A DNA stretch of 64,000 nucleotides from Acidobacteriota bacterium (GCA_020349885.1 CP070701.1:907880-971879); one strand, 5' to 3'; positions 31,538 through 64,000 are shown, numbered from the stretch's first letter. Notes: generated by a model not told the origin, from the letters alone. Program-made: numbers and translations.

Positions 31538-32155
31538 CTACTTTTTCCGCTCCTCGAAATCTACCAGGTCGCGCTGCTCGAGCACCTTGTCCACCATGCC
31601 GTAGCTCAGGGCGTCCTCGGCCGCCATGATGAAGTCGCGGTCGGTGTCTTTCTCGATCTTATCGAGCGGCTGCCCCGTGTGCTTGGCGAGGATTTCGTTG
31701 AGGCGCTTGCGGATGCGGAGAATCTCCTGCGCCTGGATGCTGACGTCCGAGGCCTGTCCCTGAAAGCCCCCGAGGGGCTGGTGGATGATGATGCGCGAGT
31801 TGGGGAGCGCGAACCGCTTGCCCTCGGTTCCCGCCGAAAGGATCAGGGCGCCCATGCTCGCCGCCTGCCCGATGCAGATGGTCGAGACGTTGGGCTTGAC
31901 GAACTGCATCGTGTCGTAAATGGCGAGCCCCGCCGTGACGGAGCCGCCGGGGCAGTTGACGTAGACGTAGATGTCCTTGCCGGGGTCTTCGGCTTCGAGA
32001 AAGAGCATCTGGGCGATGACCACGTTGGCGATGTCGTCCGTGACAGGCGTGCCGATGAAGACGATGTTGTCCTTGAGGAGGCGCGAGTAGATGTCGTACG
32101 CGCGCTCCCCGCGGGGGGTCTGCTCGACCACTATCGGAATGAGGGGCATCATCAT
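31538..32155 (-). CDS. clpP: ATP-dependent Clp protease proteolytic subunit
   Basis: [11 protein letters not shown] Ser site and IIHQPLGG His site. Confidence 0.95.
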
Positions 32156-33533: not shown

Positions 33534-33615
33534 TGCGAAAGGGGGGATTTGAACCCCCACCCCCGAAGGGACGGGATCCTAAGTCCCGCGCGTCTGCCAG
33601 TTCCGCCACTTTCGC
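33534..33615 (-). tRNA. tRNA-Leu (anticodon TAG)
   Basis: Hand-folded. Acceptor stem GCGAAAG/CTTTCGC, discriminator A, anticodon loop CTTAGGA, 13-nt variable arm, T-loop GGTTCAAATCC. CCA is not encoded. Confidence 0.85.
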
Positions 33616-33690
33616 CCGGGAAATCTTTCCGCCGCCCGCATCTCCTTCCGTACGGTTTCCATACGGGTTCCGTACGGCCTCCATACGGGA

Positions 33691-33763
33691 TGAGCCGCGC
33701 AGGAGTCGAACCTGCAACCTACGGATTAAGAGTCCGTTGCTCTGCCAGTTGAGCTAGCGGCCC
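33691..33763 (-). tRNA. tRNA-Lys (anticodon CTT)
   Basis: Hand-folded. GGGCCGC acceptor stem with one G-U pair, anticodon loop CTCTTAA, T-arm GCAGGTTCGACTCCTGC. Close to E. coli tRNA-Lys. Confidence 0.85.
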
Positions 33764-33973: not shown

Positions 33974-35542
33974 CTAGTGAAGCCGCTCCAGCTCCCGCCC
34001 GGCGCTCTGGTATTCGGGTATTATCGTTGCGTTGGTCGCGAGGCATTTTTCAAAAAGCTCGCGGGCCTTCTTCTCCCGTTCCGGCAGGGGCGCATCGCTT
34101 GGCTCCCCCGTGCCCAGCAAATGCGCCATACCCATGTAGTAATACGCTTCGCATTTTCGCCGTCGATCGGTTTCCTCGTCGTCGCTTTCCGTCGCTTCGA
34201 GAACCTTCTCCTCAGTGATTTCCCCGATGTAGAAGCGCGCAAGAGGCGCGGGCCATCCGGCGTCTTCGGGTGTTTTTCCCCAGTTACTCACGTGCGCTCG
34301 AGCTTCTTCCTCCCTGCCCGTTTCGAAGACGGCAAGGGAGTAGGCAAGCTGGACATAGACGTCATCATATTCGACATCCACGGCCGTGCGGTATTCGGCG
34401 CTTTCGGGATCCCAAAGGACGGGTGCCTGGAATTCTTGGATGGCTTCCCAGTATTTCTCCTGGTGGTAGTAAACCCACGCCAGGCCGCTGTGCGCATTGG
34501 CGTGTTCCGGTTCGAGTCTGATAGCTTTCTGGAACTCCGAGATGGCCGCCCCAAACTCGCTCTGGTCCGCGTACACCCACCCCAGGCTGTTGTGTGGGTC
34601 CGGGTTTTCCGGCTCCAAGGCGACGGCTTTCCACAACTCGGCAGTCGCCTCCTCGTAGCGGCCCTGCATATGGTAAATGTCGCCCATGCCGTTGTGTGCC
34701 TCGATGTCATCCGGGTCGAGCTCGGCGGCTTCCTGAAATTTCACCAGCGCCTCCTCGTACCTTCCCTGGCCGTAGTAAACCCACCCGAGGTCGCTCAGCA
34801 GCACGGCGTCTTCGGGCCTGAGGTGGCCGTACCGCTCGTCGCTGACCAGCGCGAGGGATTTTTCAAATAAATCCTCCGCCTCCTCCCAGTTTTCCAGAAT
34901 GTAGTAAACGTTGCCCTGCCAGCGAAGGCTCTCCGCGGTGGGGGGGTCGATTTTCTGAAGCAGGCGAAGCGCCTTGTCGGGCATGTCTTGGTAGTAAGCC
35001 GCCGCCACAAGGAGTGCCACGTTGCGAAGCTCGTCCACTTCGGTTTTTTCCACCCCCCCCTGCTCGGGCGAGGCGAAAAGCACCTCTACGGAGCGCTCCT
35101 TTTCCCGGAACCACCGAAGGGGCGTCAAGGTTGTGAGGTAGGGCCGAATTTCCATGCTTTCCTGAAACATGAACACGTGCCCCCAGACGACAATGTCCGC
35201 CTGGAGTGCTTCGCCCAGGGTTTCCGCCTCCTCCTCGGTGCGGGGAGGTTCGTCAGCATCTTCCGCCGCTGAAATCGTTACGCCTTCCTCGGCCCCCAGC
35301 TCCTCGCGAAGCGTCTTCTCCGCCATGCGCTGCATGGCCCGGCCCTTTTCCATGGCCGTCTCGTCCGGTCCCCAGAACGGTGCCACCGCGATGACGAATT
35401 TTTCTTCTTCCCTCTCCACTTCCGTCCTCTCTTCCAACGGGAGAGGGAAAAGGGGGGCGAGGGCCTTCCACGCCCACCATGCCGCCGCTGCGGCTATGAT
35501 GAGTATAAAGACAATTACCGTCCAGAGGGTTTTCTTATTCAT
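33974..35542 (-). CDS. Membrane-anchored TPR family protein, paralog 1 of the tandem array
   Basis: N-terminal K-rich TM anchor (KKTLWTVIVFILIIAAAAAWWAWK). Conserved ~150-aa domain (FVIAVAPFWGPDE...ADIVVWGHVF...ELRNVALLVAAAYYQ). TPR repeats. Conserved C-terminus QKCEAYYYMG...FEKCLATNAT. Confidence 0.8.
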   Translation of the reverse strand: MNKKTLWTVIVFILIIAAAAAWWAWKALAPLFPLPLEERTEVEREEEKFVIAVAPFWGPDETAMEKGRAMQRMAEKTLREELGAEEGVTISAAEDADEPPRTEEEAETLGEALQADIVVWGHVFMFQESMEIRPYLTTLTPLRWFREKERSVEVLFASPEQGGVEKTEVDELRNVALLVAAAYYQDMPDKALRLLQKIDPPTAESLRWQGNVYYILENWEEAEDLFEKSLALVSDERYGHLRPEDAVLLSDLGWVYYGQGRYEEALVKFQEAAELDPDDIEAHNGMGDIYHMQGRYEEATAELWKAVALEPENPDPHNSLGWVYADQSEFGAAISEFQKAIRLEPEHANAHSGLAWVYYHQEKYWEAIQEFQAPVLWDPESAEYRTAVDVEYDDVYVQLAYSLAVFETGREEEARAHVSNWGKTPEDAGWPAPLARFYIGEITEEKVLEATESDDEETDRRRKCEAYYYMGMAHLLGTGEPSDAPLPEREKKARELFEKCLATNATIIPEYQSAGRELERLH

Positions 35543-35560
35543 GAATCACGATTTCTTTTT

Positions 35561-37123
35561 TTAAAGCTGCTTCAGCTCCCGCTCGGCGCTCCGGTATTCG
35601 GGCGTTATCGTTGCACCGGTCGAGAGGCATTTCTCAAAATACCCGCGGGCCTTCTTCTCCCGTTCCGGCAGGGGCGCATCGCTCGGTGCCCCTGCACCCA
35701 GCAAATGCGCCGTTCCCATGTAGTAATACGCCTCGCATTTTTGCCGGCGGCCGATTTCCTCGTCGTCGCTTTCCGCCGCTTCGAGGACTTTTTCTTCCGC
35801 GGCTTCTCCGGCGTAGAAGCGCGCAATGGGTGCGGGCCATTCGGCTTCCGCTATGCCTTTGTACATTCTTGCCACTTCTTTCATGTGCGCTCGAGCTTCT
35901 TCCTCCCTGCCCGTTTTGAGGAGGGCAAGAGAGTAGGCAAATCCGAGGTAGACGTCCCCATATACGGCCTCAATGGCCGTGCGATGTTCGGCGCCTGCGG
36001 GATCTACAACGGGCGTCTCAAACTCCGCGACAGCCTTCTCGTATTCCCCCTGGTGGTAGTAAACCCACGCCAAGCCGGTGTGCGCATCGGCGTGTTTCGG
36101 GTCGAACTCGACGACTTTCCGGAACTCCGAGATGGCCGCCCCAAATTCGCTCTGGTCGCAGTACACCCATCCCAAGCTGTTGTGGGGTTCGGGGTTTTCC
36201 GGCTCCAGGGCGATGGCTTTCCACAGCTCGGCAGCCGCCTCCTTGTAGCGGCGCTGGATATAGTAAATGTCGCCCATGCCGTTGTGTGCCTCGATGTCCT
36301 CCGGGTCGAGCTCGACGGCTTCCTGAAATTTCGCCAGCGCCTCCTCGTATTTCCCCTCGTAGTAGTAAACCCACCCGAAGTCGCTCAAGAGCGCGGCGTC
36401 TTCGGGCCTGAGGTGACCGTACCGCTCGTCATTGACCAGCGCAAGGGATTTTTCAAACAAGCCCTCCGCCTCTTCCCAGTTTTCCAAGATGTAGTAAATG
36501 TTGCCCTGCCAGTGCAGGCTATCCGCGGTGGGGGGCTCGATTTTCTGAAGGAGGCGAAGCGCCTTGTCGGGCATGTCCTGGTAGTAAGCGGCCGCCACAA
36601 GTAGCGCCACGTTGCGAAGCTCGTCCACTTCGGTTTTTTTCACCCCTCCCTCCTCGGGCGGGGCGAAGAGCACCTCTACGGAGCGTTCCTTTTCCCGGAG
36701 CCAGCGAAAGGGTGCCAGGGTCGTGAAGTAGGGCCGAATCTCCATGCCTTCCTGAAACAAGAACACGTGCCCCCAGACGACAATGTCCGCCTGGAGCGCT
36801 TCGCCGAAATTTCTCGCTTCCTCCTCGGTGCGGGGAGGCTCCTCAGCTTCTTCCGCCAGAATCGCCACGCCTTCCTCGGCCCCCAACTCCTCGCGAAGCG
36901 TTTTCTCCGCCAGGCGCTGCACGGCCCGGCCCTCTTCCACGGCTTTCGCGTCCGACCCCCAGAACGGCGCCACCGCGATGACGAAGTGCTCTTCCTGGTC
37001 TTGCAGGGACAAAGCGTCACCCGGGGCGACCCCGCAGATACCCCCGCATTTCCACACCCACCATGCCGCCGCCGCGGCGATGACGAGAATGACGATCGCT
37101 ACCCAGAGGATTTTCTTATTCAT
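35561..37123 (-). CDS. Membrane-anchored TPR family protein, paralog 2
   Basis: Same architecture. Start placed at ATG 37123 (MNKKILWVAIVILVIAAAAAWW). Confidence 0.8.
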   Translation of the reverse strand: MNKKILWVAIVILVIAAAAAWWVWKCGGICGVAPGDALSLQDQEEHFVIAVAPFWGSDAKAVEEGRAVQRLAEKTLREELGAEEGVAILAEEAEEPPRTEEEARNFGEALQADIVVWGHVFLFQEGMEIRPYFTTLAPFRWLREKERSVEVLFAPPEEGGVKKTEVDELRNVALLVAAAYYQDMPDKALRLLQKIEPPTADSLHWQGNIYYILENWEEAEGLFEKSLALVNDERYGHLRPEDAALLSDFGWVYYYEGKYEEALAKFQEAVELDPEDIEAHNGMGDIYYIQRRYKEAAAELWKAIALEPENPEPHNSLGWVYCDQSEFGAAISEFRKVVEFDPKHADAHTGLAWVYYHQGEYEKAVAEFETPVVDPAGAEHRTAIEAVYGDVYLGFAYSLALLKTGREEEARAHMKEVARMYKGIAEAEWPAPIARFYAGEAAEEKVLEAAESDDEEIGRRQKCEAYYYMGTAHLLGAGAPSDAPLPEREKKARGYFEKCLSTGATITPEYRSAERELKQL

Positions 37124-37143
37124 TGAGTCGCGATTTCTTTTTT

Positions 37144-38712
37144 TTAAAGCTGCTTCAGCTCCCGCTCGGCGCTCCGGTATTCGGGTACTGTTGTTGCGCC
37201 GGTCGCGAGGCATTTTTCAAAATGCTCGCGGGCTTTTTTCTCCCGTTCCGGCTGGGACGCATCGCGCTGCGCCCCAACGCCCAGCAAATGCGTCATCCCC
37301 ATGTAATAATACGCCTCGCATTTTTGCTCTTGTTCGAGTTCTTCGTCGTCGGCCTCCGCCGCTTTGAGGACATCTCCCTCCGTGATTTCCCCCAAGTAGA
37401 AGAACGCAAGGGGCGCGGCCCACCCGGGCTTCTCGTCGCCTCTGAACAACTTTGCCAATTCTTTTATAGGCGTCTGAGCTTCCTCACCCCGCCCCGCTCT
37501 GTGGAGGGCGAGGGAGTAAGCAAGCTGGATGTAGACGTCGCTGTACTCGGATTTGATGGCCGGATTTTCGTTGCCCGTTGCGAGATCTACAACGGGCATC
37601 TCAAACTCCGCGACGGCTTTCTCGTATTCCCCCTCGTGGTAGTGCAGCCATCCCACGGCGTTGCGCACCTCGGCGTAATGCGGGTCGAGCGTGATGACTT
37701 TCTGAAACGCCGCAAGCGCCTTCTCGTACTCGTATTTTTCCCCGTAGCAGTACGTCCACCCCAGGCCGTCGTGCGCGTCGGAGTTGCCCGGGTCGAGCTC
37801 AGCGGCTTTCTGGAATTCCGCACGTGCTTCCTCGTATTTCACCTGCTCTAAGCGAACCCATCCCAGGTCGGCGTACAGCATCGAGTCCTTCGGGTCGAGC
37901 GTGAGGGACTCCGGAGGCTCCGCGGGCGCCTCCCCGGCCGCAACGGTCTCGCGCCCCTCCCCAAGCTTGGGCTTGAGGCGCTCGTACCGCTCGCGGCGGG
38001 CCTGCGCGATGGCTCTTAAGTACAAATCCGCCGCCTCTTCCTGTTTGCTCAGCATGTAGTAGATGTTGCCCTGCCAGCGCAGGCTCTCCACGGTGGGGGG
38101 ATCGATTTTCTCGAGCAGGCGGAGCGCCTTGTCGGGCTCGCCCTGGTAATAGACGGCCGCCACAACGAGCGCCACGTTGCGAAGCTCGGCCACTTTGGTT
38201 TTTTGCATCTCCTCCTGCTCGGGCAGGGTGAAAAACGCTCCCATGGATTGCTCCTCTTTCCGAATCCAGCGAAGGGACGTCAGGGTCGTGAAGTAGGGCC
38301 GGATCTCCAAGCCTTCCTGAAACACGAACACCTGCCCCCAGATGACGATGTCCGCATGGTGCGCTTCACCGAGGGTTTTCGCCTCCTCGTCGGTGCGGGG
38401 AGGCTCTTCGATCCCTTCCGTTAAAATCGTCACGCTTTCCTCGGCCTCCAGCTCCTCTCGAAGCGCATCCCCCGTCAGGCGTTGCATGGAGCGGCCTTCT
38501 TCATCGGCCTTCGGGTCCGACGCCCAGAACGGCGCCACCGCGATGATGAATTGTCCTTCCATGTCTTGCAGGGACGAAGCGTCGCTCAGGCCGAGCTTGC
38601 AGGTCCCCCCGCATTTCCACAACCACCATGCTGCCGCCGCGGCGATGACGAGAATGACAATCGCCGCCCAGAGAATTTTTTTTCGTTGTGACCGTCCTTG
38701 CGTTTTACTCAT
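37144..38712 (-). CDS. Membrane-anchored TPR family protein, paralog 3
   Basis: Same architecture (RKKILWAAIVILVIAAAAAWW). Confidence 0.8.
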   Translation of the reverse strand: MSKTQGRSQRKKILWAAIVILVIAAAAAWWLWKCGGTCKLGLSDASSLQDMEGQFIIAVAPFWASDPKADEEGRSMQRLTGDALREELEAEESVTILTEGIEEPPRTDEEAKTLGEAHHADIVIWGQVFVFQEGLEIRPYFTTLTSLRWIRKEEQSMGAFFTLPEQEEMQKTKVAELRNVALVVAAVYYQGEPDKALRLLEKIDPPTVESLRWQGNIYYMLSKQEEAADLYLRAIAQARRERYERLKPKLGEGRETVAAGEAPAEPPESLTLDPKDSMLYADLGWVRLEQVKYEEARAEFQKAAELDPGNSDAHDGLGWTYCYGEKYEYEKALAAFQKVITLDPHYAEVRNAVGWLHYHEGEYEKAVAEFEMPVVDLATGNENPAIKSEYSDVYIQLAYSLALHRAGRGEEAQTPIKELAKLFRGDEKPGWAAPLAFFYLGEITEGDVLKAAEADDEELEQEQKCEAYYYMGMTHLLGVGAQRDASQPEREKKAREHFEKCLATGATTVPEYRSAERELKQL

Positions 38713-38802
38713 GGATTTACCTTTCAGGCGAGCCGTAGAACGCCGGGGGCGGAAGTCCGAAGCCGCTGAACGGGCCGCAAGAGGCGAGGCCGGTGCGGTT
38801 TC

Positions 38803-40275
38803 CTAAGCTCCTCCTTGAAGCTGCTCAAGCTCCCGCTCGGCGCTCCGGTATTCGGGCAGGTCTGTTGCATCGGTCGCGAGGCTCTTTTCGAGGTATTCGC
38901 GGACTGTTTCCTGCCGATTCCGTTGGGGGGCGCCGCCGGACGGCCCCACGCCCAGCGCATACGCCATCCCCATGTAATAATACGCCTCGCATATTTGCTC
39001 TCGCTCAAGTGTCTCGTCGTCGACCTTCGCCGCTTCGAGAACCTCTTCTTCCGTGATTTCCCCGAGGTAGAAGAGCACAAGGGGCGCGGGCCATTCGGCT
39101 TCCGCTATGCCTTTGTACATTCTTGCCGCCTCTTCCATGTGCGCTTGAGCTTCTTCCCCCCGGCCCGTTTTGAGGAGGGCGAGGGAGCAGGCAAGCTGGA
39201 CGTAGACGTCGTCGTAATCGACTTCTACGGCCTTGCGATATTCGGCGCCCGTGGCATCTGTGATGGTCGTCTGAAACTCGCCGACGGCCTCCTCGTATCT
39301 CCCCTCGTGGTAGTAAACCCACCCGAGGCCGTTGTGCACCTCGGCGTTGTTCGGATCGAGCTCGACGGCCTTCTGGAACTCCGCAACCGCCTCATCATAG
39401 TCTTCGTCGAAGTAGTAAAGCCACCCCATACCGCTGAGCGCTTCGACGTGTTCCGGGTCGAGCTCGAGGGACTTCTGGAACTTCGCACGCGCCTCCTCGT
39501 ATTTTGCCTGCTCAAAGTAAAGCCACGCGAGGTCGCTCAGGAGTATGGCGTCCTCGGGCCTGAGGTGGCCGAACCGCTCTTCCCGGGCCAGCGCGAGGGC
39601 TTCTTCCGCCAAACTTTCCGCCTTTTCCCATTTCTTCAGAATGTAGTATACGTTGGCTTGCCAGCGCAGGCTCTCCGCGGTGGGGGGATCGATTTTCTGA
39701 AGCAGTCGAAGCGCCTTGTCGGGTTCGTTCTGGTAATACACCGCCGCCACGAGGATCGCCACGTTGCGAAGCTCGTCCACTTCGGTCTTTTTCATCCCTC
39801 CCTCATCGGGCGGGGCGAAGAGCACTTCCATGGAGCGTTCTTTTTCCCGAAGCCAGCGAAGGGGCGTCAGGGCCGTGAAGTAGGGCCGTATCTCCATGGC
39901 TTCCTGAAACACGAACACGTGCCCCCAGACGACGATGTCCGCCTGGAGCGCCGCGCCGAACTTTTTCGCTTCCTCGTCGGTGCGTGGAGGTTTTTTCACC
40001 TCTTCCGCCAGAATCGCCACGCCTTCCTCTGTCCCCAGCTCCTCGCGAAGCGTCTTCTCCGCCAGGCGCTGCACGGCCAAGCCCTCCTCAACGGCCTTCG
40101 CGTCCGACCCCCAGAACGGCGCCACCGCGATGACGAAGTGCTCTTCCTGGTCTTGCAGGGCCGAAGCGTCGCTCAGGCCGAGCTTGCATGCCCCCCCGCA
40201 TTTCCACACCCACCATGCTGCCGCGGCGGCGATGACGAGAAGGACAATCACCGCCCAGAGGATTTTCTTTTTCAT
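38803..40275 (-). CDS. Membrane-anchored TPR family protein, paralog 4
   Basis: Same architecture (MKKKILWAVIVLLVIAAAAAWW). Confidence 0.8.
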   Translation of the reverse strand: MKKKILWAVIVLLVIAAAAAWWVWKCGGACKLGLSDASALQDQEEHFVIAVAPFWGSDAKAVEEGLAVQRLAEKTLREELGTEEGVAILAEEVKKPPRTDEEAKKFGAALQADIVVWGHVFVFQEAMEIRPYFTALTPLRWLREKERSMEVLFAPPDEGGMKKTEVDELRNVAILVAAVYYQNEPDKALRLLQKIDPPTAESLRWQANVYYILKKWEKAESLAEEALALAREERFGHLRPEDAILLSDLAWLYFEQAKYEEARAKFQKSLELDPEHVEALSGMGWLYYFDEDYDEAVAEFQKAVELDPNNAEVHNGLGWVYYHEGRYEEAVGEFQTTITDATGAEYRKAVEVDYDDVYVQLACSLALLKTGRGEEAQAHMEEAARMYKGIAEAEWPAPLVLFYLGEITEEEVLEAAKVDDETLEREQICEAYYYMGMAYALGVGPSGGAPQRNRQETVREYLEKSLATDATDLPEYRSAERELEQLQGGA

Positions 40276-40298
40276 AAGCCGCTAATTCCTTTATTTTC

Positions 40299-41846
40299 TT
40301 AAAGTTGCTTCAACTCGCGTTTGGCGCTCCGGTATTCCGGTACGGTCGTTGTGCCGATCGCGAGGCATTTCTCAAAATACCCGCGGGCTTTTTTCTTCCG
40401 TTCCGGCTGAGGCGCTTCGCTCTGCGCCCCTACGCCCAGCAAATGTGCCATCCCCATGTAATAATACGCCTCGCATTTTTGCTCTTGTTCGAGCGTCTCG
40501 TCGTCGCTCTTTGTCGCTTCGAGAACATCTTCCTCCGTGATTTCCCCGAGATAGAAGAACGCAAGGGGCGCGGCCCATCCGGGCTCCTCGTCGCCTCTGA
40601 ACACCTTGACCAATTCTTTTATAGGCGTTTGAGCTTCTTCCCCCCGGCCCGCTCTGTGAAGGGCGAAGGCGTAAGCAAGCTGGATGTAGACGTCGCTGTA
40701 CTCGGACTGGACGGCCGGGTATTCGGCGCCCGTCGCGGGATCCGCAACGGGTGTCTCAAACTCCGCGACGGCTTTCTCGCATCCCCCCTCGTGATAGTGC
40801 ACCCATCCCATGCCGCAGTGCACCTCGCCGGTGTACTGCGGGTCGAGATCGACGGCTTTCTGAAACGCCGCAAGCGCCTTCTCGTAGTCGTACTCTTCCC
40901 CGTAGCAGTACGTCCACCCTAGGCCGTCTTGTGCGTCGGCGTTGTTCGGGTCGAGCGCGGCGGCTTTCTGGAACTCCGCGAGCGCTTTCTCGTATTTTGC
41001 CTGCTCGCTGTAGACCCATCCCAGGTCGGCGTACAGCATGGAGTCCATCGGGTCGAGCGCGAGGGACTCCGGAACCTCCGCGGGCGCCTCCCCGGTCGTC
41101 CCCGCAAGCTTGGGTTTGAGGCGCTCGTACCGCTCGCGGCGGGCCTGCGCGATGGCTTTCTGGTACAAATCCGCTGCCGCCTCATGTTTGTTCAGCATGT
41201 AGTGGATATTTCCCTGCCACCGCAGGCTCTCCACGGTGGGAGGGGCGATTTTCTGAAGCAGGCGAAGCGCTTTGTCGGGCTCGCCCTGGTAATAGACGGC
41301 CGCCACAAGGAGCGCCACGTTGCGAAGCTCATCCACTTTGGCTTTTTGCTTATCCCGCTGCTCGGGCAGTGTGAAGAACGCCCCCATGGAGTGCTCCTCT
41401 TCCCGAATCCAGCGAAGGGACGTCAGGGTCGTGAAGTAGGGCCGAATCTCCATGCCCTCCTGAAACACGAACACGTGCCCCCAGATGACGATGTCCGCCT
41501 GAAACGCCTTGCCGATGATTTTCGCCTCCTCGTCGGTGCGGGGAGATCTGCCGATCCCTTCCACCAAAACCGTCACGCCTTCCTCGGCCTCCAGCTCCTT
41601 GCGAAGTATCTCCCCCGTCAGGCGCTGCATGGTCCGGCCCTCTCTTATGGCTTTCGCGTCCGACGCCCAGAACGGCGCCACCGCGATGATGAATTGCTCT
41701 TGCAGGAACGCAGCGTCGCCCGGTGCGACCCCGCAGGTCCCCCTGCATTTCCACGCCCACCATGCCGCCGCCGCGGCGATGACGAGAAGGACAATCAACA
41801 CCCAGAGGAATTTCTTTCGTCGCGGACGCTGTTGCGTTTCGCTCAT
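40299..41846 (-). CDS. Membrane-anchored TPR family protein, paralog 5
   Basis: Same architecture. Start placed at ATG 41846 (MSETQQRPRRKKFLWVLIVLLVIAAAAAWW). The 773-aa track ORF is a stop-free upstream extension. Confidence 0.75.
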   Translation of the reverse strand: MSETQQRPRRKKFLWVLIVLLVIAAAAAWWAWKCRGTCGVAPGDAAFLQEQFIIAVAPFWASDAKAIREGRTMQRLTGEILRKELEAEEGVTVLVEGIGRSPRTDEEAKIIGKAFQADIVIWGHVFVFQEGMEIRPYFTTLTSLRWIREEEHSMGAFFTLPEQRDKQKAKVDELRNVALLVAAVYYQGEPDKALRLLQKIAPPTVESLRWQGNIHYMLNKHEAAADLYQKAIAQARRERYERLKPKLAGTTGEAPAEVPESLALDPMDSMLYADLGWVYSEQAKYEKALAEFQKAAALDPNNADAQDGLGWTYCYGEEYDYEKALAAFQKAVDLDPQYTGEVHCGMGWVHYHEGGCEKAVAEFETPVADPATGAEYPAVQSEYSDVYIQLAYAFALHRAGRGEEAQTPIKELVKVFRGDEEPGWAAPLAFFYLGEITEEDVLEATKSDDETLEQEQKCEAYYYMGMAHLLGVGAQSEAPQPERKKKARGYFEKCLAIGTTTVPEYRSAKRELKQL

Positions 41847-55807: not shown

Positions 55808-57025
55808 CTACTCTTTCCCCCCTTTTTCTTCTTGAAGAAATTCCAGGAAGCGCGCGACCTCGACCGAGTCCGAATCGCACTGCTTGAGGAGGGTTTTGAG
55901 GGCCCGGTGCGCTCTTCGCTCGACCACCTCGTTCCGCTCCGCGCGTGCCATGCGCCAAAGGTAGTAGTGGTTCACGAAGCGGATGTCGGGATAGCCGTGC
56001 CGGACGGCCATGAGCTCGCTCTTGTGGAAGTAGTCCTTGGCCGCTTCGTAGCCCTCCTGCTCGTAGTGCCCCTTGCCGAGGCCGCTGAGTGCGAGGGCGG
56101 TGTAGCGGTGGTGGTTGAGCTTCTCGCTCAGCTTGAGTGCGTCGTGGAGATTGCGGTATCCCTTGCGCCCCTGGGCGTTGAGGATGTAGCTATGGCCCAG
56201 GTTCATGAGCACCACCACGCGCTGCGCCTGCTTGTCCTTGGTCTTCTTGAAAAAATCCAGCGACAGGCTGTAGTGCTCGATCGCCCGCCCGAGCAGGAAC
56301 GAGTCCGAGCGCTCGCGGTGCTCGTAGAGGTCGTAATCCAGGTCACCGAGGGTGTTCAGGATGGCGCCCTGGTGCTCCGAGTCATCGTGGACCTCCGTCA
56401 GGGCCAGGGCCTGGAGCGCCATGGCGCGCGACATCTCGAAGTTTCCCATCTGCCGGAACACGGCCGAGAGGTTGCTGTACGCCTGCACCCTCGAAGAATC
56501 GTCGAGCTCGAACAGGCCTAGCACCCTCTCGAACTCGTCGCGCGCCCACTGGAGTTTTCCCATCTTCCACAGACACTCCGCCTTCCGGTTGCGGAGGAGG
56601 GCCGCGTGGGCGGGCTCCGCGGGGAAAGAGAGCGCCTCCTCGAGATAGGCGTACGCCTGCGCGTAGTCGCCCGCCTGGAACGCCCCGTCCGCCCGCTTCT
56701 CGAGCACCCCTGGGCTCTTCTCGCCGGGGACCGTTTTCGGCTGCCGGTCAAGGTCGATGAGGTCGAGGAAGCGCTGCGGATGCACGTGATAGATCTTGGC
56801 CAGCGTGATGAGCTTGGGGGCGGAGGGAATGACGTTGCCATTCTCGGCGTCGGCGAGCAGAGAGGCCGAAACGACCTCGCCGTACTGCTGCGCTTCGTCG
56901 GTCACCTCCCGCAGCGTCTTATGGTGCGCCGAGCGAAGCATCTTCAGATAGAGCCCCATGCGGGACTTGTGCTCCCCCTCCTCACCGGCCCTCCGCGCGG
57001 CTTCAAACAAGTGCTTGTCCACCAT
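55808..57025 (-). CDS. XRE-family HTH transcriptional regulator with C-terminal TPR repeats
   Basis: N-terminal HTH (LKMLRSAHHKTLREVTDEAQ...) followed by 6 or more TPR repeats. Divergent from the first DMT transporter gene. Confidence 0.75.
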   Translation of the reverse strand: MVDKHLFEAARRAGEEGEHKSRMGLYLKMLRSAHHKTLREVTDEAQQYGEVVSASLLADAENGNVIPSAPKLITLAKIYHVHPQRFLDLIDLDRQPKTVPGEKSPGVLEKRADGAFQAGDYAQAYAYLEEALSFPAEPAHAALLRNRKAECLWKMGKLQWARDEFERVLGLFELDDSSRVQAYSNLSAVFRQMGNFEMSRAMALQALALTEVHDDSEHQGAILNTLGDLDYDLYEHRERSDSFLLGRAIEHYSLSLDFFKKTKDKQAQRVVVLMNLGHSYILNAQGRKGYRNLHDALKLSEKLNHHRYTALALSGLGKGHYEQEGYEAAKDYFHKSELMAVRHGYPDIRFVNHYYLWRMARAERNEVVERRAHRALKTLLKQCDSDSVEVARFLEFLQEEKGGKE

Positions 57026-57171
57026 ACCCCTTCTCCTTTATCCTTGTCTTCCGCGTTTCCAGTTGGAGCTTCCCCCGGGCTTGGACGGTGCCCCTGCGGG
57101 ACGTGCGCTCCCCCTCCGCACCGGCCCTCCGTATGGCTTCAAACAAACAAGTGCTTGTCTATCGCACCCCT
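56960..57171. repeat. Two ~72-bp direct repeats (56960-57031 and 57096-57171), about 90% identical
   Basis: Copy 1 spans the regulator start codon and its first 20 codons. Copy 2 lies 136 bp upstream and is a decayed duplicate (ATG lost, 3-nt insertion). Both contain the near-palindrome ACAAGTGCTTGT. Confidence 0.7.
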
Positions 57172-57280
57172 TTTTTTACCTCTTATAGTGTAAGACAAAA
57201 CGCGGCGTTTGTCAAGTGATTCCCCCGTGCCCCCGGTATGGGTCGGCCCGTCCATATCAGGGGGATAATTGACGAATATT

Positions 57281-57308
57281 TTGTTGAAATTGAAAGTTGT
57301 GGTAATAT
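57281..57308 (+). promoter_or_regulatory. Candidate promoter TTGTTG-N16-TGgTAATAT for DMT transporter gene 1
   Basis: Extended -10 (TGnTAATAT) with a weak -35. It would give a ~165-nt leader containing the two GGCRCGGATGAAAA motifs. Confidence 0.35.
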
Positions 57309-57475
57309 GTCCCGCTTCGTCCCACGGGAGCCACGGCGCACCGATGGAACGGCGCGGATGAAAATATTTAAGGATTAAATTTGGAATTTGTGATACTATG
57401 CTTTCCTTCGTTCGACGGAAGCCCCGGGGCTCCGCCGGGACGGCACGGATGAAAACAGTAAAGAGATAGCAGGAA

Positions 57476-58378
57476 ATGTTCAGCGACCATTTTTGGCTGG
57501 AGACCACGTTTCTCGCGTTTTTCCTCTACGGAATTGGTCAGGGACTGCTCAAGCAGTACGTCGGGGACGTATCGGCCTATCGTTTCTGCCTGTACGCCGT
57601 GCCGACGTACTTCCTGGCGGACGCGGTTTTTTATTTGTTATATATGCCCTCACCCAACCCGTTTGCCGCCGAGGGGCGCCAGTTTATGTATTACGCGCTG
57701 ACGCTCTGCCTCCTGGAGGGCGTGGCCTATGTCTGTTATTACGAGTCCATTGCGGGCGGCCTCATCAGCATTGTCGGGACGGTTTCCGCCGCCTATCCGG
57801 CCGTGACCGTCGTGTATGCCTATTTTATTTTGGACGAAACCTTGTCCACCAAACAATACATCGGGGTCTTTATGGTGATCGCCGGGTGCATCGGCATCGC
57901 GTACGAGCCTTCCGACCCAGACCAAAAGGTCTCGAAGCGCCGAGTTCTGGGAATGCCGGTATGGTTCTTACAGGCCCTGATTGCCGCGCTCGGATGGGGG
58001 ATCGGGGCAGGGATGACGAGATACGCCTTCGAGTATACGGAAAATGCGAGCGAGGGCAATATGGCGTTGTTCGGTTTCATCGGCTATTGCCTCCCGCTGG
58101 CCGTGTATGGCGCGTACAAGGAAAAGGATTGGAAATTCCCGAAAAGGCAGATGGCGCTCGCCTTTACGCCCCTGATGATGATAGCCATCGGCGACGTGAT
58201 ACTCATCATTTCCTACAAATATGGCCTGGCTTCTATCGTGACGCCTGTGTCGGGCGCGTATCCGGCGCTGACGATAGTGTATGCGTTCTTCGTTCTCAAG
58301 GAGAAGCTCACGCCCCTTCAGTGGGTGTTCGTCACGATAATTTTCGTCGGCATGCTCATGGCCCCGGGCGCGGAATAG
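57476..58378 (+). CDS. DMT superfamily (EamA-like) transporter, paralog 1
   Basis: 300 aa, 10 TM segments. Two-fold internal repeat with GGLISIVGTVSAAYPAVTVV and ASIVTPVSGAYPALTIVYAFF. Confidence 0.75.
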   Translation: MFSDHFWLETTFLAFFLYGIGQGLLKQYVGDVSAYRFCLYAVPTYFLADAVFYLLYMPSPNPFAAEGRQFMYYALTLCLLEGVAYVCYYESIAGGLISIVGTVSAAYPAVTVVYAYFILDETLSTKQYIGVFMVIAGCIGIAYEPSDPDQKVSKRRVLGMPVWFLQALIAALGWGIGAGMTRYAFEYTENASEGNMALFGFIGYCLPLAVYGAYKEKDWKFPKRQMALAFTPLMMIAIGDVILIISYKYGLASIVTPVSGAYPALTIVYAFFVLKEKLTPLQWVFVTIIFVGMLMAPGAE

Positions 58379-58437
58379 CCGACGCGACCCGCCCAAATTT
58401 TCAGCCGAAGCTTGCGAATTATCCTTCCTTAAATTGC

Positions 58438-58463
58438 AGCGGGCGGCACATGAACCGCCCGCT
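58438..58463. terminator. Strong hairpin in convergent intergenic region (DMT1 / homocysteine methyltransferase)
   Basis: 9-bp GC stem agcgggcgg/ccgcccgct with an 8-nt loop. No clean U-tract. Confidence 0.35.
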
Positions 58464-58502
58464 ACAACCACAAACGGTTGGTCTATATTTTCAAAGGCGG
58501 GG

Positions 58503-59468
58503 CTAACCCTTCACCACGGGCGCGATGGCCTTGATGTGCTTGGGCTCGCTCGAGCAGCACCCCCCGATGATCTGGGCGCCCATCTTCTTCCACTCGCGGG
58601 CGTACTCGGCGTATTTTTCCGGGGTGATCCCCCGGATCCCGTGGAGCCAGAACTTTTCGTCGGGCGAGGTGCCGTACTTGGGATTTTCGTAATACCCTAA
58701 TTCAGCGTAGGCGCCGATGGGCCCGGCGAAGGCCTTGCGCAGCTCGGGCAGGCTGGCCGTAACCTCGTCGGGGTCGCAGCACATCAGGAAGATGCCGTCC
58801 ACCCTGTGGCCCTTGAGCGCCGCGACGAGTTCGGCGTAGGTCTCTCCGTGCATCATCTTTCCGTCTTTCTTCCCGTCGGTTGCGATGTTCAGCCCGAGGA
58901 ACACGGGAAGCTTCGTCTTTGCGCAGGCGTCCACGGCCGTCACGCAGTCCTTGATCGGGGTCTCGTGCACGATTTCCCCCGCCATGTACTCGGGAAGCAT
59001 AAAGTCCACGCCCGCCTCGGCGAGGATGCGGGATATGGCCTCGAACTCCTGGCCGAGATCGCTGCCGCAGTCTTCGTTTACGTTCTGGTATCCGAAGGTG
59101 GGGGCGATGCCGCCCGCAACGTACGCTTCGGGATTGACGGCGTCACGGGCCGCGACGGCCAGCTCACCGCCCCGCCGCACGTACTCCTCCCATCGGTTCT
59201 GCTCGCCGATCATAGACAGCATCCCCTTGCTCGTAAAGAAATTGTTGCTGATGATGATCTCGGCTCCGACCTTGAGGTAATCCTCGTGGATCGCCCGGAC
59301 GACATCCGGGGCGTCGAGGTTCGCGGCGGCCGACCACACGCCGAGCTTATCGACGGAGCAGCCCTTGTCCACGTCGACTCCGCGCCTTTGTAGCTCGCTC
59401 CCCATGGCCCCGTCCATAACTATATACTCGCCGGCCTTAAGCCGATCGACAATGCTTCGCGATGGCAT
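58503..59468 (-). CDS. Homocysteine S-methyltransferase family protein
   Basis: MDGAMGSELQRRG N-terminus and the C-terminal GGCCSSEPKHI zinc-binding motif. 321 aa. Confidence 0.8.
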   Translation of the reverse strand: MPSRSIVDRLKAGEYIVMDGAMGSELQRRGVDVDKGCSVDKLGVWSAAANLDAPDVVRAIHEDYLKVGAEIIISNNFFTSKGMLSMIGEQNRWEEYVRRGGELAVAARDAVNPEAYVAGGIAPTFGYQNVNEDCGSDLGQEFEAISRILAEAGVDFMLPEYMAGEIVHETPIKDCVTAVDACAKTKLPVFLGLNIATDGKKDGKMMHGETYAELVAALKGHRVDGIFLMCCDPDEVTASLPELRKAFAGPIGAYAELGYYENPKYGTSPDEKFWLHGIRGITPEKYAEYAREWKKMGAQIIGGCCSSEPKHIKAIAPVVKG

Positions 59469-59633
59469 AGCTTTTTTCCCTTTCTGTTTTTTTTAAGTTT
59501 TCCGAGAAAATCGTAACCCAGCAGAACCCGGGTGACGCCCGGGAACGCATAAGTATGGATGCATGGCCGAGGTGTGTCAAGGCTCGCGCGCCCGGCGCGC
59601 GGCCGCGCGCTATTAACTATGCCGCCGGGTTTT

Positions 59634-59690
59634 GTTAGAATGGCGCGGATGGCTGAAGCGTCCGAAAACCTTGCGGTGCGCCGCGCCGAA
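59634..59690 (+). promoter_or_regulatory. Conserved leader element A (GTTAGAATGG-hairpin) upstream of DMT paralog 2
   Basis: gttagaatGGCGCGGatggctgaagcgt...CCGCGCC: a 7-bp stem around a ~32-nt loop, 20 nt before the ATG. A near-identical element precedes the TPR paralog at 60793, with a compensatory base change. Confidence 0.5.
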
Positions 59691-59708
59691 GCAGGAAGTT
59701 AAACAGTA

Positions 59709-60617
59709 ATGCTTTCCCTGCTGAGCGGGCATTGGCTGGTGCTTACGTTAATCACGGTTTTCCTCTACGGGATTGCGGAGGGGTTGTGCAAGCAGTTCAT
59801 CGGGGACATAACGCCCCCTCGCTTCTGCCTGTATTCCGTGCCGATAGCCGCCGTGGTGTACTTGGGTTTTTATCTGATGCATGACCATCCTCCGCCGCTT
59901 GATCCCGAGGGCCGGCAGTTTCTCTTCTTCGCGGTGCTGGCCAGCCTGATGGAGAGCACGAGCGCGGTCCTTTACTTCGAGGCCCTTTCGGGCGGCCCCG
60001 TGAGCATCGTCGGCCCGATTACTGCGGCCGCTCCGGTCGTGACCGTCGTGTCGGCCCGTTTTATTTTGGATGAAATCCTGACCCCCGCCCAATACGCGGG
60101 GATTGTGCTGGTGATCGCCGCATGCATAGGCATTGCGCATGCGCATTCAGACCCGGAGCGGTCCGGCGAATCCGGGTCCGGCAAAAGGGGCACGAGCCGG
60201 CTGTGGTTCCTGCAGTCCGTTCTTGCCATGTGCGGATGGGGAATGGGGGCGACGCTGACGAAATACGCCTACCAGCTGCCCCGGGCGAACGAGGCCAATT
60301 TCATGCTGTATTGGGGATTCGCCGTGGCGATCACCCTGGGCGGGTACGGCGTGCTTCGGGAGCGAGAGTGGAAATTTCCGGCAAGGGAAATTGCCCTCGC
60401 CGCCGCGCCCCTGGTGATGTTTTCCACCGGCAGCCTGCTGCTCATCCTCGCCTATAAGTGGGGGCCGGCCTCGCTCGTGACGACTTTGCTGGCCGGCTCC
60501 ATACCCATAATGCTGGTGTACGCGTTCTTCATCATCGGGGAGAGGCTCACGCGCATTCAGTGGCTGTGCATCACGCTGGTTTTCATAGGCATGATTTTAT
60601 GCTCCGGCCCGGAGTAG
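59709..60617 (+). CDS. DMT superfamily (EamA-like) transporter, paralog 2
   Basis: 302 aa. Same architecture (GGPVSIVGPITAAAPVVTVV). Confidence 0.75.
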   Translation: MLSLLSGHWLVLTLITVFLYGIAEGLCKQFIGDITPPRFCLYSVPIAAVVYLGFYLMHDHPPPLDPEGRQFLFFAVLASLMESTSAVLYFEALSGGPVSIVGPITAAAPVVTVVSARFILDEILTPAQYAGIVLVIAACIGIAHAHSDPERSGESGSGKRGTSRLWFLQSVLAMCGWGMGATLTKYAYQLPRANEANFMLYWGFAVAITLGGYGVLREREWKFPAREIALAAAPLVMFSTGSLLLILAYKWGPASLVTTLLAGSIPIMLVYAFFIIGERLTRIQWLCITLVFIGMILCSGPE

Positions 60618-60704
60618 CGAAACGGAAATGCCAAAAAAAGAGAGGTGGGGGAACGGACGCTTCTTTATATAATTTAAGGAATCTCCCATTTGCGGTTGAG
60701 TTCT

Positions 60705-60755
60705 GTTAGAATGGTGCGGATGGTCGAAGCGTTGGAGAATTTCACGTGCACCGGA
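60705..60755 (+). promoter_or_regulatory. Conserved leader element B upstream of the TPR paralog 6 / DMT paralog 3 operon
   Basis: gttagaatGGTGCGGatggtcgaagcgtt...GCACC. The 5' flank and the loop start are conserved with element A. The stem change C to T is compensated by G to A. Confidence 0.5.
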
Positions 60756-60792
60756 AAGCCGACGGAGACGCTCTTGCGGTCAAGATGAGCCT

Positions 60793-62223
60793 ATGAGCGA
60801 AACGCCGGGGCGGCCGCGAGGAAAGGCAACCCTCTGGGTTGTGGTTGTCATCGTTGTCGTCGCGGTGGCGGGATGGTGGATGTGGAGAACCCTCCCCTCC
60901 GTTTCCCTTCTCACGCGGGGAGAGGGGGCGGAAGAAAAAAAGGAGGAACAATTCGTCATCGCGGTGGCGCCGTTCTGGGGGCCGGACGAGAGGGCCCTGG
61001 AAAAGGGCCTGGACATGCAGCGCCTGGCGGAGGAAATGTTTGAACAGGAATTGGGGGACGAGGAGAACGTAACGATCCTGGCGGATGATTTCATCCCGCC
61101 CCGCACCGAGGAGGAGGCAAGGGTCCTCGGCGAAACGCTCCAGGCGGACCTCATCCTCTGGGGCCAGATACATACGTTTCCCAGCTACCTGGAAATTCGA
61201 CCCCACCTCGAGCTCCTGAGGACCATCCGGTGGCTGCGGGAGAGGGAGAGTTCCGTGCTGGTGTTTTTCACCCTGCCCGAGGAGATGAGCCTGGAAAAGA
61301 TAGGAGCGCAGGATCTTCGCAACGCGGCGCGTCTCGTGATGGCCGCACACTACCAGGGCGAGCCAGACAAGGCGCTCGGCTTCCTGCAAAAGATCGACCC
61401 TCCCACCGCCGAGAGCCTGCGCTGGCAGGGTAACATTTACGTCTTTCAAAACAACTGGGAAGAAGCGGAAGTCTTATTTCAACAAGCCATCGCGCTCGAC
61501 CCGGAATACGCCGTGCTGCACGTCGACGTGGGATGGGCTCACACCTACCAGGAAGAATACGAGGAGGCGCTTTCGAGCTTTCAGAAGGCCATGGAGCTCG
61601 ACCCGAAGGACGCCGAGGCGCACGCCGGCCTGGGGTGGGCTTATTCCGACCTGGGAAGATACGAGGAAAGCGTACAGGAATTTCTGAAAGCCGTAGCGCT
61701 CGACCCACACAGCTTCGCTACACGCAACGGCCTGGGGTGGGTGTACTACCACATGGGAAGATACGAGGAGAGCGTCCGGGAATTCCAGACGCCCATTCCC
61801 TGGGGTTATAAAGGCGCCGAGCGTCGCACGGCCGCGGCCTCGGAGTACGAGGACAGCTACAGCCAGCTCGCCTACACGCTCGCCCTCCTGAAAACAGGCA
61901 TGGAGAAAGAAGCCCGGGCGCACGAAAAAGAGCTGAGGAAAATCTACGCGGGACTCGCGGAGGCCGAATGGCCCGCGCCCCTGGTGCGCTTCTACGCCGG
62001 CATCATCACGGAAGACGCCGCCCTCGAAGCGGCTGAAAGCGACGACGAGGAGACCGACCGCGGCCAGAAGTGCGAGGCGTACTACTACGTCGGCATGCGG
62101 CGCCTTCTCGGCGGCGACCGGGAAAAGGCCGGGGAATTTTTTAAAAAATGCCTAGCGACCGGGGCGACGACCTTCCCCGAATACCGCAGCACCGAGCGGG
62201 AGCTGGGACAATCGGAGCAGTAG
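60793..62223 (+). CDS. Membrane-anchored TPR family protein, paralog 6 (same family as the 33974-41846 array)
   Basis: FVIAVAPFWGPDERALEKG...ADLILWGQIHTF, TPR repeats, and the C-terminal QKCEAYYYVG...FKKCLATGATTFPEYRSTERELGQ. Confidence 0.8.
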   Translation: MSETPGRPRGKATLWVVVVIVVVAVAGWWMWRTLPSVSLLTRGEGAEEKKEEQFVIAVAPFWGPDERALEKGLDMQRLAEEMFEQELGDEENVTILADDFIPPRTEEEARVLGETLQADLILWGQIHTFPSYLEIRPHLELLRTIRWLRERESSVLVFFTLPEEMSLEKIGAQDLRNAARLVMAAHYQGEPDKALGFLQKIDPPTAESLRWQGNIYVFQNNWEEAEVLFQQAIALDPEYAVLHVDVGWAHTYQEEYEEALSSFQKAMELDPKDAEAHAGLGWAYSDLGRYEESVQEFLKAVALDPHSFATRNGLGWVYYHMGRYEESVREFQTPIPWGYKGAERRTAAASEYEDSYSQLAYTLALLKTGMEKEARAHEKELRKIYAGLAEAEWPAPLVRFYAGIITEDAALEAAESDDEETDRGQKCEAYYYVGMRRLLGGDREKAGEFFKKCLATGATTFPEYRSTERELGQSEQ

Positions 62224-62263
62224 CAACCAAGGGGCCACAGGAAGCTAACAGGAAAGGGGTTCC

Positions 62264-63175
62264 ATGCTGATCGAGCCTTGGTTCGTACTTACAATGGTTG
62301 CGGTATTCGGCTACGGGATATCGGACGGATTGTACAAGCAATTCCTCGACGAGAGTATAACGGTCTCCCGTTTCTGCCTGTATTCCGTACCGATAACAAT
62401 CGTGGTCTACGGGTATTATTTTCTGACCAACGAGCACGCTCCGCCGTTTGCTCCGGAGGGGCGCGAGTTTATGTTCTACGTGATACTGGCCGCCACACTG
62501 GAAAACGCGGCATGGATTCTTTCCTTCGAGGCCCTTGTGAGCGGCCCCATCAGTATTATCGCCCCGGTTTGCGCGGCCTATCCGGCCGTGACCGCCGTGC
62601 TGATCTTCCTTGATGCGCGCTTCACCCATCTTTTGGATGAAACCCTGTCCCCCCATCAATACCTAGGGGTTGCGTTGGTCGTCATCGGCTGCATGGGCAT
62701 TGCGTACGAGCCTTCCACTCCCACGGAAAAGCCCGCGCGCCGATTTCTAGGGATACCCATATGGTTTATAGAGTGCGTTCTTGCCGCGATTCTATGGGGG
62801 ATCGGAGGGATGATGGACGGCTGGGTCTATGAGCTGCCCAATGCGAGCGAGGCCAATTTCGCGTTGTTTGCGGGGATTGCCACGGCGCTCGCGCTCCTTT
62901 TCTACGGCCTGATTCAGGAGCGCGAGTGGAAATTCCCCCCGATAAAGGAACCGCTGCAGGCCTTCATTCCGCTTGGGCTTAACGCCGTCGGCGACGTGGC
63001 GATCATGGTCGCCTATAACATGGGCCCGGCCACGCTCGTGACGACCCTGTCGGCCGCTTCCATCCCGATAACGCTGGTGTATGCGTTCATCATCCTCAGT
63101 GAGAGGCTTAATCGCTTTCAGTGGACGTGCATCACGCTTACTTTCATCGGCGCGATTTTATGCTCCGGCCCGTAG
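62264..63175 (+). CDS. DMT superfamily (EamA-like) transporter, paralog 3
   Basis: 303 aa. Lies 40 nt downstream of TPR paralog 6 with a GGAAAGGGG RBS, so it is probably co-transcribed. Confidence 0.75.
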   Translation: MLIEPWFVLTMVAVFGYGISDGLYKQFLDESITVSRFCLYSVPITIVVYGYYFLTNEHAPPFAPEGREFMFYVILAATLENAAWILSFEALVSGPISIIAPVCAAYPAVTAVLIFLDARFTHLLDETLSPHQYLGVALVVIGCMGIAYEPSTPTEKPARRFLGIPIWFIECVLAAILWGIGGMMDGWVYELPNASEANFALFAGIATALALLFYGLIQEREWKFPPIKEPLQAFIPLGLNAVGDVAIMVAYNMGPATLVTTLSAASIPITLVYAFIILSERLNRFQWTCITLTFIGAILCSGP

Positions 63176-63288
63176 TAGCAAATCGGGACCGCTTGTGGTA
63201 GAGCGAGAGACCTTTAAAAACCGCCGTGTGTTGTGTAACGGATTCCTGTAACCCAATGAACAGATGAAGACAAAGGAATTATTCGAGC

Positions 63289-64000
63289 ATGCTTTTATTT
63301 GAGCCCTGGTTCGGGCTTTCATTGATTGCGGTATTCAGTTACGGGATATCGGACGGAGTGTACAAGCAATTCCTCGACGAGAGCATATCGGTCTCCCGTT
63401 TCTGCGCGTACGGCGCAATTACGACGATCTTGTTCTACGGAGGGTTCGCCTGGTACTGGCATCTGACCGAGGACCATCCTATGCCGTTCGCTCTCCATGA
63501 TTTAGAGTTTATGCTCTACGGGACTCTGTCCAGCACACTGGAGACCACGGCCTGGATTCTTACATTTGAAGCCATTGTGCACGGCCCCGTAAGTATCGTC
63601 GGCCCGATATCCGCGGCCTATCCGGCCGTGACCGCTGTTATCGTCATTCTTGATGCGCGCTACATCCATCTTTTGGATGAAATCCTGTTCCCCTGGCAAT
63701 ACGTGGGGGTTGCGGTGGTCATCCTAGGTTGCATGGGCATCGCGTACGAGCCTTCCTCTCCCACGGAGAAGCCCTCGCGCAAGATTTTAGGGATACCCAT
63801 ATGGTTTTACCAGTCCGCCCTTGCCGCGATTCTATGGGGGATCGGGGGGTTCATGGACCGCTGGGTCTACGAGCTGCCCAATGCGAGCGAGGCCAATTTT
63901 TTAATATACGGGGGAATTGGCGATGTGATATATCTCGGCGGCTACGGCCTGATCCGGGCGCGCGTGAAGAAAGAGTGGGACTTCTCGTTCAAGGAGTTTG
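63289..64000 (+). CDS. DMT superfamily (EamA-like) transporter, paralog 4 (3' end outside window)
   Basis: ATG at 63289. MLLFEPWFGLSLIAVFSYGISDGVYKQFLDESISVSRFC aligns with paralog 3. The open frame runs to the window end. Confidence 0.65.
   Translation, partial: MLLFEPWFGLSLIAVFSYGISDGVYKQFLDESISVSRFCAYGAITTILFYGGFAWYWHLTEDHPMPFALHDLEFMLYGTLSSTLETTAWILTFEAIVHGPVSIVGPISAAYPAVTAVIVILDARYIHLLDEILFPWQYVGVAVVILGCMGIAYEPSSPTEKPSRKILGIPIWFYQSALAAILWGIGGFMDRWVYELPNASEANFLIYGGIGDVIYLGGYGLIRARVKKEWDFSFKEF

Follow-up and report, generated by a model that had tools for sequence, protein, structure and literature searches.

We analyzed a 64,000-nt stretch of DNA from an Acidobacteriota bacterium (GCA_020349885.1, CP070701.1:907880-971879; here called the window) that carries two similar short elements, copies A and B, upstream of transporter and TPR protein genes. 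A sequence-only reading had described these copies as a conserved hairpin leader maintained by selection for RNA pairing. We find that the shared motif is real and selected, and that a duplicated promoter and leader module of an ordinary kind is the best explanation for it. The genes around it had been called correctly: an XRE(HTH_31)-TPR regulator gene (55808-57025, minus strand), three EamA/DMT transporter genes, termed DMT1 (57476-58378, plus strand), DMT2 (59709-60617, plus strand) and DMT3 (62264-63175, plus strand), a TPR protein gene (60793-62223, plus strand) and, between DMT1 and DMT2, a homocysteine S-methyltransferase gene (58503-59468, minus strand). A fourth DMT gene starts near 63290. 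Copy A lies upstream of DMT2, and copy B upstream of the TPR protein gene, which forms an operon with DMT3 (60793-63175) across a 40-nt gap that holds no promoter-like site. The duplicated DMT coding segments are 62-79% identical in a repeat comparison of the window, and NCBIfam gave no specific name to the neighboring proteins.

Copies A and B share a degenerate 28-mer, GTTAGAATGGYGCGGATGGYYGAAGCGT, which matches the window exactly at 59634-59661 and 60705-60732; no other match is present in the window with up to three mismatches allowed, and shuffled sequences give none. The ungapped similarity between the copies extends over 49 nt at 78% identity. The arms of the proposed hairpin also lie where the sequence-only reading had placed them: GGCGCGG (59642-59648) and CCGCGCC (59681-59687) enclose a 32-nt loop in A, and GGTGCG (60713-60718) and TGCACC (60747-60752) a 28-nt loop in B, all on the plus strand. 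In orthologs of B, the 3′ arm reads TGCATC or TGCGCC.

We recovered six further copies from related uncultured Acidobacteria, on short metagenome contigs. Exact-pattern scans of public genome contigs (two patterns) and metagenome contigs gave 0 matches, as did a protein-guided scan of metagenome contigs, so homologs were reached only through protein matches to DMT2 and the TPR protein and the contigs that carry them. A-type copies come from the window, L002, L003 and L005 (n = 4), with a truncated copy in L004, and B-type copies from the window, L002, L009 and L010 (n = 4). The resulting alignment of eight copies comprises seven distinct sequences, and is thus a small sample. The only further contig found with this sequence, L001 (Logan SRR14739665), covers both intergenic regions without a difference from the window; L011 was left out, as its contig lacks the intergenic region.

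The first 8 bases of the motif form the 3′ part of an extended -10 element, TGnTAGAAT. This element reads TGTTAGAAT in both window copies (59633-59641 in A and 60704-60712 in B, plus strand) and is invariant in all eight copies of the alignment, written either as TGTTAGAAT or as TGGTAGAAT. Each of the eight has A at position 2 and T at position 6 of the hexamer, with TG one base upstream, as expected of an extended -10 element. The sequence TGNTANAAT occurs four times in the 64 kb, compared to 1.17 occurrences expected by chance, and all four sites lie 44-85 nt 5′ of an open reading frame (ORF) on the same strand: copies A and B, a site 44 nt before the ORF at 2883, and a site 68 nt before clpP. 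A and B thus share with extended -10 (TGn) sigma-70 promoters the TG one base upstream of TAnAAT, the distance of 60-85 nt from the gene, the orientation, a -35 element that is weak or dispensable, and the position of every window occurrence in front of a gene. They differ in that ~17 nt past the predicted start are conserved as well as the -10 element, which a bare promoter does not need.

A promoter scan paired the -10 hexamer of copy A with a candidate -35 hexamer for the DMT2 promoter, TTAACT (59613-59618, plus strand), at a 17-nt spacer, and TTAACT-17-TAGAAT with the upstream TG was found in both the window and L002. Because this spacing is not retained in L003 and L005, the -35 hexamer is the weaker part of the copy A promoter. 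Extended -10 promoters do not require a -35 hexamer. We also considered other promoter classes. Read from the sequence, a sigma-54 promoter (TGGCAC-N5-TTGC, with GG and GC 12 nt apart) was rejected because the GG-to-GC distance in TGGCGCGGATGGCTG is 10 nt, and B has no GC at this place; an extracytoplasmic function (ECF) sigma factor was rejected as well, since neither the spacing nor the bases of the motif fit.

Sequence comparison among the relatives points to selection on this region. A 36-nt core of copy B (-17 to +17) is identical in all four B orthologs, whose TPR genes are only 86-89% identical at third codon positions (11-14% divergence), and this invariance despite third-codon divergence argues for purifying selection on the core. 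The adjoining 20 nt on the 3′ side contain the 3′ hairpin arm; they hold six variable sites and evolve at about the neutral rate. For the A-type leader, the window and L005 are 77-81% identical (counted from the alignment) compared to 74% at third codon positions, and constraint is mild. Across all eight copies, the columns ATGG..GAA.CGT that follow the discriminator region are invariant. The earlier view of A and B as a conserved cis-element shared by two gene units is supported with respect to purifying selection, and is not supported with respect to RNA structure.

We propose that A and B are probably two paralogous promoter-plus-leader modules of an ordinary, duplicated kind. Each module would consist of a sigma-70-type extended -10 element, a 7-nt GC-rich discriminator (GGYGCGG), and the ATGG..GAA.CGT block. 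The discriminator reads GGCGCGG in copy A (59642-59648, plus strand; predicted -6 to +1) and GGTGCGG in copy B (60713-60719, plus strand), and in both copies it coincides with the 5′ hairpin arm. Judging from the position of the -10 element, transcription would start at G59648/A59649 in A and at G60719/A60720 in B. The 5′ arm begins immediately after the -10 hexamer and is seven bases long, of which the RNA would contain no more than one or two. This predicted geometry comes close to a start site downstream of the element, at which the sequence-only reading would by its own terms fail. The 5′ start of the hairpin thus probably lies upstream of the transcript; the 5′ arm would be part of the melted promoter region rather than of an RNA, and the "hairpin" would be incidental GC-rich complementarity. 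GC-rich discriminators are a property of stringent-type promoters, for example E. coli rrnB P1. A and B are similar to these in placing a GC-rich GGYGCGG between the -10 element and the predicted start site, but this is a resemblance only, and the DMT and TPR genes do not belong to the translation apparatus.

The surroundings of the two copies suggest how such modules would be used. Copy A is bounded upstream by a divergent promoter, TTGACA-17-CATACT (59552-59580, minus strand), which belongs to the homocysteine S-methyltransferase gene and is conserved in L002, L003 and L005; copy A would drive DMT2 back to back with this promoter. In L002, L009 and L010, the DMT2 stop codon is followed by a GAAGC-N4-GCTTC-T-run hairpin, and copy B lies ~45 nt beyond it; copy B would restart transcription for the TPR-DMT3 operon. 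The simplest map would be promoter A followed by DMT2, a terminator, promoter B, and TPR-DMT3. The module would have been copied along with its gene cassettes during expansion of the DMT family.

Within each module, the predicted initial transcribed region begins with the conserved block, ATGGCTGAAGCGT in A (59649-59661, plus strand) and ATGGTCGAAGCGT in B (60720-60732, plus strand). In all eight copies its ATG is found 7 nt past the -10 hexamer, which puts it 13 nt from the first T of TAGAAT. We infer that selection on +1 to +17 likely acts on a promoter-proximal function, with contacts of the discriminator and start site, a repressor site over +1, and the 5′ AUG of a leaderless short ORF as candidates. 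Of these, the leaderless AUG may be slightly ahead of an operator over +1, or the two may be equally possible. The hypothetical short ORF would encode MAEASENLAVRRAEAGS in A (59649-59702, plus strand), with its stop codon 6 nt before the DMT2 ATG, and MVEALENFTCTGKPTETLLRSR in B (60720-60788, plus strand), with its stop codon 4 nt before the TPR ATG. It is open in all eight copies, with 17-23 codons (58 in L005), and in the eight complete copies its stop codon lies either 4-6 nt before the main start codon or in a 16-nt overlap with the gene. The conserved part of the peptide is limited to ~7 residues. We rejected the idea that the B frame is an N-terminal extension of the TPR protein, as it is in another frame and all TPR paralogs start with MSET... 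or M.KK... at the annotated ATG.

Several observations weigh against the promoter-module interpretation or its parts. The -35 hexamer is absent or shifted in L003 and L005 and poor in B; in all B copies a -35 hexamer at 16-18 nt is absent or shifted, and an A+T-rich stretch lies upstream of the window B copy. In the window itself, the terminator-like hairpin that precedes B has decayed, so a read-through RNA with the whole element could exist. The start-site block shows neither a dyad nor a clear operator-type repeat. The short ORF has no significance by shuffling, with 28-83% of shuffled sequences open as well; its B copies show ~9 non-synonymous and 3 synonymous changes (counted by eye), which is about neutral, and the A copies keep a common frame for only ~16 codons. 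Finally, the ability to form the stem is kept, as the stem positions pair in 95.7% of cells across the eight copies. All changes in the 3′ arm are pairing-compatible transitions, and the loop also contains transversions; this transition-only pattern is suggestive of an RNA stem, but at five of the seven arm positions a transition of any kind is tolerated anyway.

The alternative closest to the sequence-only reading is a structured cis-regulatory RNA, in which the 6-7-bp stem and its conserved 28-32-nt loop would sense a ligand or protein to control the DMT and TPR genes. Such an RNA would have to start upstream of the TAGAAT box or, for B, arise by read-through from DMT2. We consider it improbable. 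Besides the retained pairing, it is favored by the end of the conserved A-type block at the 3′ arm, identical in the window, L005 and L004, and by RNAalifold, which retains five outer pairs, though with a covariation term of only -0.75 kcal/mol. The paired C-to-T and G-to-A change between A and B, which had been taken to indicate selection for RNA pairing, is real and converts a C-G to a U-A pair, and the other 3′-arm changes are compatible with G-U pairing. This is the only compensatory pair, however, it arose in a single event on the branch between A and B, and 203 of 500 column shuffles score equally well. We found no excess stability: minimum free energy (MFE) z-scores against shuffled sequences are -0.40 for A and +0.53 for B, and the MFE fold of B does not contain the proposed stem. 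When we fixed the 5′ arm and shuffled the downstream 65 nt, allowing G-U pairs, an equally long complement appeared in 13-27% of trials for three A copies (7 bp), in 62% for L005 (5 bp) and in ~51-59% for B (6 bp). The hairpin is no better than chance. In RNA that begins at the predicted +1 of A, the 3′ arm instead pairs locally (CGGUGC-GCC-GCGCCG). The 5′ arm abuts the invariant extended -10 element, no alternative upstream promoter is conserved, and in B orthologs the 3′ arm evolves at the near-neutral rate given above. An Rfam scan of the whole window at the gathering threshold returned only two tRNAs, and a scan of 56900-61000 at E<=10 left the element unmatched. A covariance model of the eight copies with the proposed stem (R1), run with filters off, identified no copy in the window besides A and B. 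Its third match, at 31871-31910 (plus strand; 13.5 bits, E ~0.016), is antisense to the part of clpP that codes for the conserved DVSTICIG motif and was taken as chance; this site has a perfect 7-bp stem and a loop starting with AUGGUCGAGACGUUGG. With riboswitches and leader RNAs in Rfam, the elements share a location in the 5′ region of transporter genes and beside a methionine/S-methylmethionine-type enzyme gene, as well as a possible stem around a conserved "loop". They differ from these RNAs in lacking an Rfam match, excess stability and significant covariation, in having no terminator or stem that would sequester a Shine-Dalgarno sequence, and in a 5′ arm that is located in the predicted promoter. 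Two further RNA structures were rejected. An intrinsic terminator or attenuator is not consistent with the sequence, as neither 3′ arm is followed by a T-run and a terminator scan lists neither element; an inner hairpin at the predicted 5′ end (GGAUG/CGUCC) is paired in 91% of cells, without covariation, and is disrupted in L005 and the window B copy. At the other extreme, the A/B similarity might be a functionless, neutral leftover of recent duplication or of gene conversion between the two intergenic regions. Cassette duplication is clear for the DMT genes, and other paralog leaders share modules, but L002 carries both types with type-specific bases, and the A/B split thus predates the sampled relatives. 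Moreover, A and B agree at 25 of the 28 motif bases, compared to 62-79% identity for the DMT coding repeats, and the B core is invariant among diverged orthologs. We regard a neutral origin as very improbable.

The remaining alternatives concern the start-site block. In one, transcripts would start at the invariant ATG, and the short upstream ORF would couple or attenuate translation of DMT2 and the TPR gene. The ATG spacing holds in all eight copies even though the two preceding bases vary in L005, and it fits the ~12-nt distance reported for TANNNT-led leaderless genes (PMC3160421); in mycobacteria, leaderless short ORFs are known as first cistrons (PMC4633059; bioRxiv 10.1101/834739). Like the leaderless mRNAs and upstream ORFs of Actinobacteria and Deinococcus described in these three studies, A and B combine a TANNNT box at this distance from an ATG with a short first cistron that ends beside the main start codon. 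They differ in having no polycysteine-type codon bias, a peptide that is unconserved past its first residues, and putative frames that are statistically chance-like. No amino-acid enrichment is seen, the L004 ORF ends 74 nt before its gene, the conservation of third codon positions within GAA and.CG is not coding-like, and the promoters of the DMT1 leader and the tandem DMT spacers have no ATG at such spacing. Together with the shuffling result, the neutral changes in B and the frame shifts among A copies, this makes translational control by a leaderless ORF unlikely. A similarly unlikely alternative is that the block from -10 to +17 is a DNA operator at which a shared factor, such as the XRE-TPR protein, co-regulates the DMT and TPR paralogs; this idea is compatible with the promoter explanation. 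It would account for the invariance of the B core across the predicted start in four orthologs. We also identified an imperfect direct repeat, ATGGYG-N3-ATGGYN (-8 to +6), both units of which change from C to T between A and B, and the 10-mer GGYRCGGATG occurs five times in the window compared to 0.98 expected, with four of the five occurrences in DMT/TPR leaders beside the regulator gene. On the other hand, the block has no dyad symmetry, the repeat is weak and has a period of 9 bp, the promoter of the regulator gene itself lacks such a motif, and the 10-mers in the DMT1 leader do not adjoin a -10 element and gain no link to A and B from R1.

The DMT1 leader (57284-57463, plus strand) consists of two tandem 91-nt direct repeats (57284-57372 and 57375-57463) with 73% identity. 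Each contains its own extended -10-like box (TGGTAATAT and TGATACTAT), followed ~45 nt further by the 10-mer GGCGCGGATG. The half-motifs that had been noted here, at 57346 and 57437, are at the positions given but are not the same structural element as A and B: R1 misses them, their distance from the box differs by ~45 nt, and their place in a stem would be on the other strand. The optimal fold of repeat unit 1 (z = -1.94) has the GGCGCGG half-motif as the 3′ strand of a long hairpin, and in the proposed hairpin of A and B it is the 5′ strand. Each repeat unit also has a hairpin after its box, with arms TCCCG/CGGGA in one and TTTCC/GGAAG in the other, and a 23-codon open frame. In two more distant relatives, the DMT2-type leaders are ~120 nt longer (L005 1235-1380, L004 24-182), and the insert can be aligned at ~60% to the window's DMT1 repeat unit, an alignment that takes in a GTCCCGCT...CGGGAGCC hairpin. 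Because of this resemblance, the leaders of the family look like a mosaic of duplicated modules, and shared ancestry is then as good an explanation of the 10-mer as a common operator.

Other features of the region were noted alongside these analyses. Spacers between tandem DMT genes (window 63176-63291; L003 1401-1508; L007 454-561 and 1474-1588) hold another promoter-like box (TGGTAGAGC, TGGTAAATT and TGGTAGATT), followed by a conserved CCTTCAAAAA...GCGCG...ACGGAT segment, and each DMT paralog may have its own promoter. In the leader of the homocysteine S-methyltransferase gene, we found a CCCGGG-N5-CCCGGG hairpin (window ~59507-59523, minus-strand transcript) with a CGTCA loop on the mRNA strand. 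Its counterpart in L003 (~302-318) reads CCTGGG-CATC-CCCAGG, a compensatory C-G to T-A change relative to the window, and the hairpin has no Rfam match. Between the convergent DMT1 and methyltransferase genes lies a strong GC-rich palindrome, GCAGCGGGCGGC...GCCGCCCGCTAC (58434-58467), which is probably a bidirectional terminator; it gives a sub-threshold match to PtaRNA1 (22.9 bits, E = 0.23). Near the regulator gene, a direct repeat (56955-57010 and 57091-57146, 88% identity) shows that the XRE-TPR gene has a degenerate second copy of its 5′ end at 57091-57146, in which the start codon is lost; this copy sits between the gene and its predicted promoter, TTGACA-17-TACACT (57215-57187, minus strand). 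Elsewhere in the window, five tandem TPR paralogs (33977-41846, minus strand) are 46-52% identical to the TPR protein at 60793, and this array adjoins two tRNA genes (33534-33763). In the first gene of the array, TGGTATCCT lies only 15 nt 5′ of the ATG, implying a very short leader.

These results carry a caution. In GC-rich genomes, short complementary arms and one paired substitution between two paralogs are weak evidence for RNA structure. More generally, a look for a -10 box should come first when a "leader motif" is found to be conserved. We think it quite unlikely that the block from the start to +17 is a lineage-specific leader, either a leaderless gating ORF or a promoter-proximal RNA or DNA hairpin read by the XRE-TPR protein. 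If it is, the DMT set, the TPR proteins and the homocysteine S-methyltransferase would belong to one unrecognized regulon of an uncultured acidobacterial clade, and if the start-site block is regulatory at all, it would be a modest and lineage-restricted addition to known mechanisms. The likely operon map has separate extended -10 promoters for DMT2 and TPR-DMT3, and TGnTAnAAT would provide a usable promoter signature in this uncultured acidobacterium.

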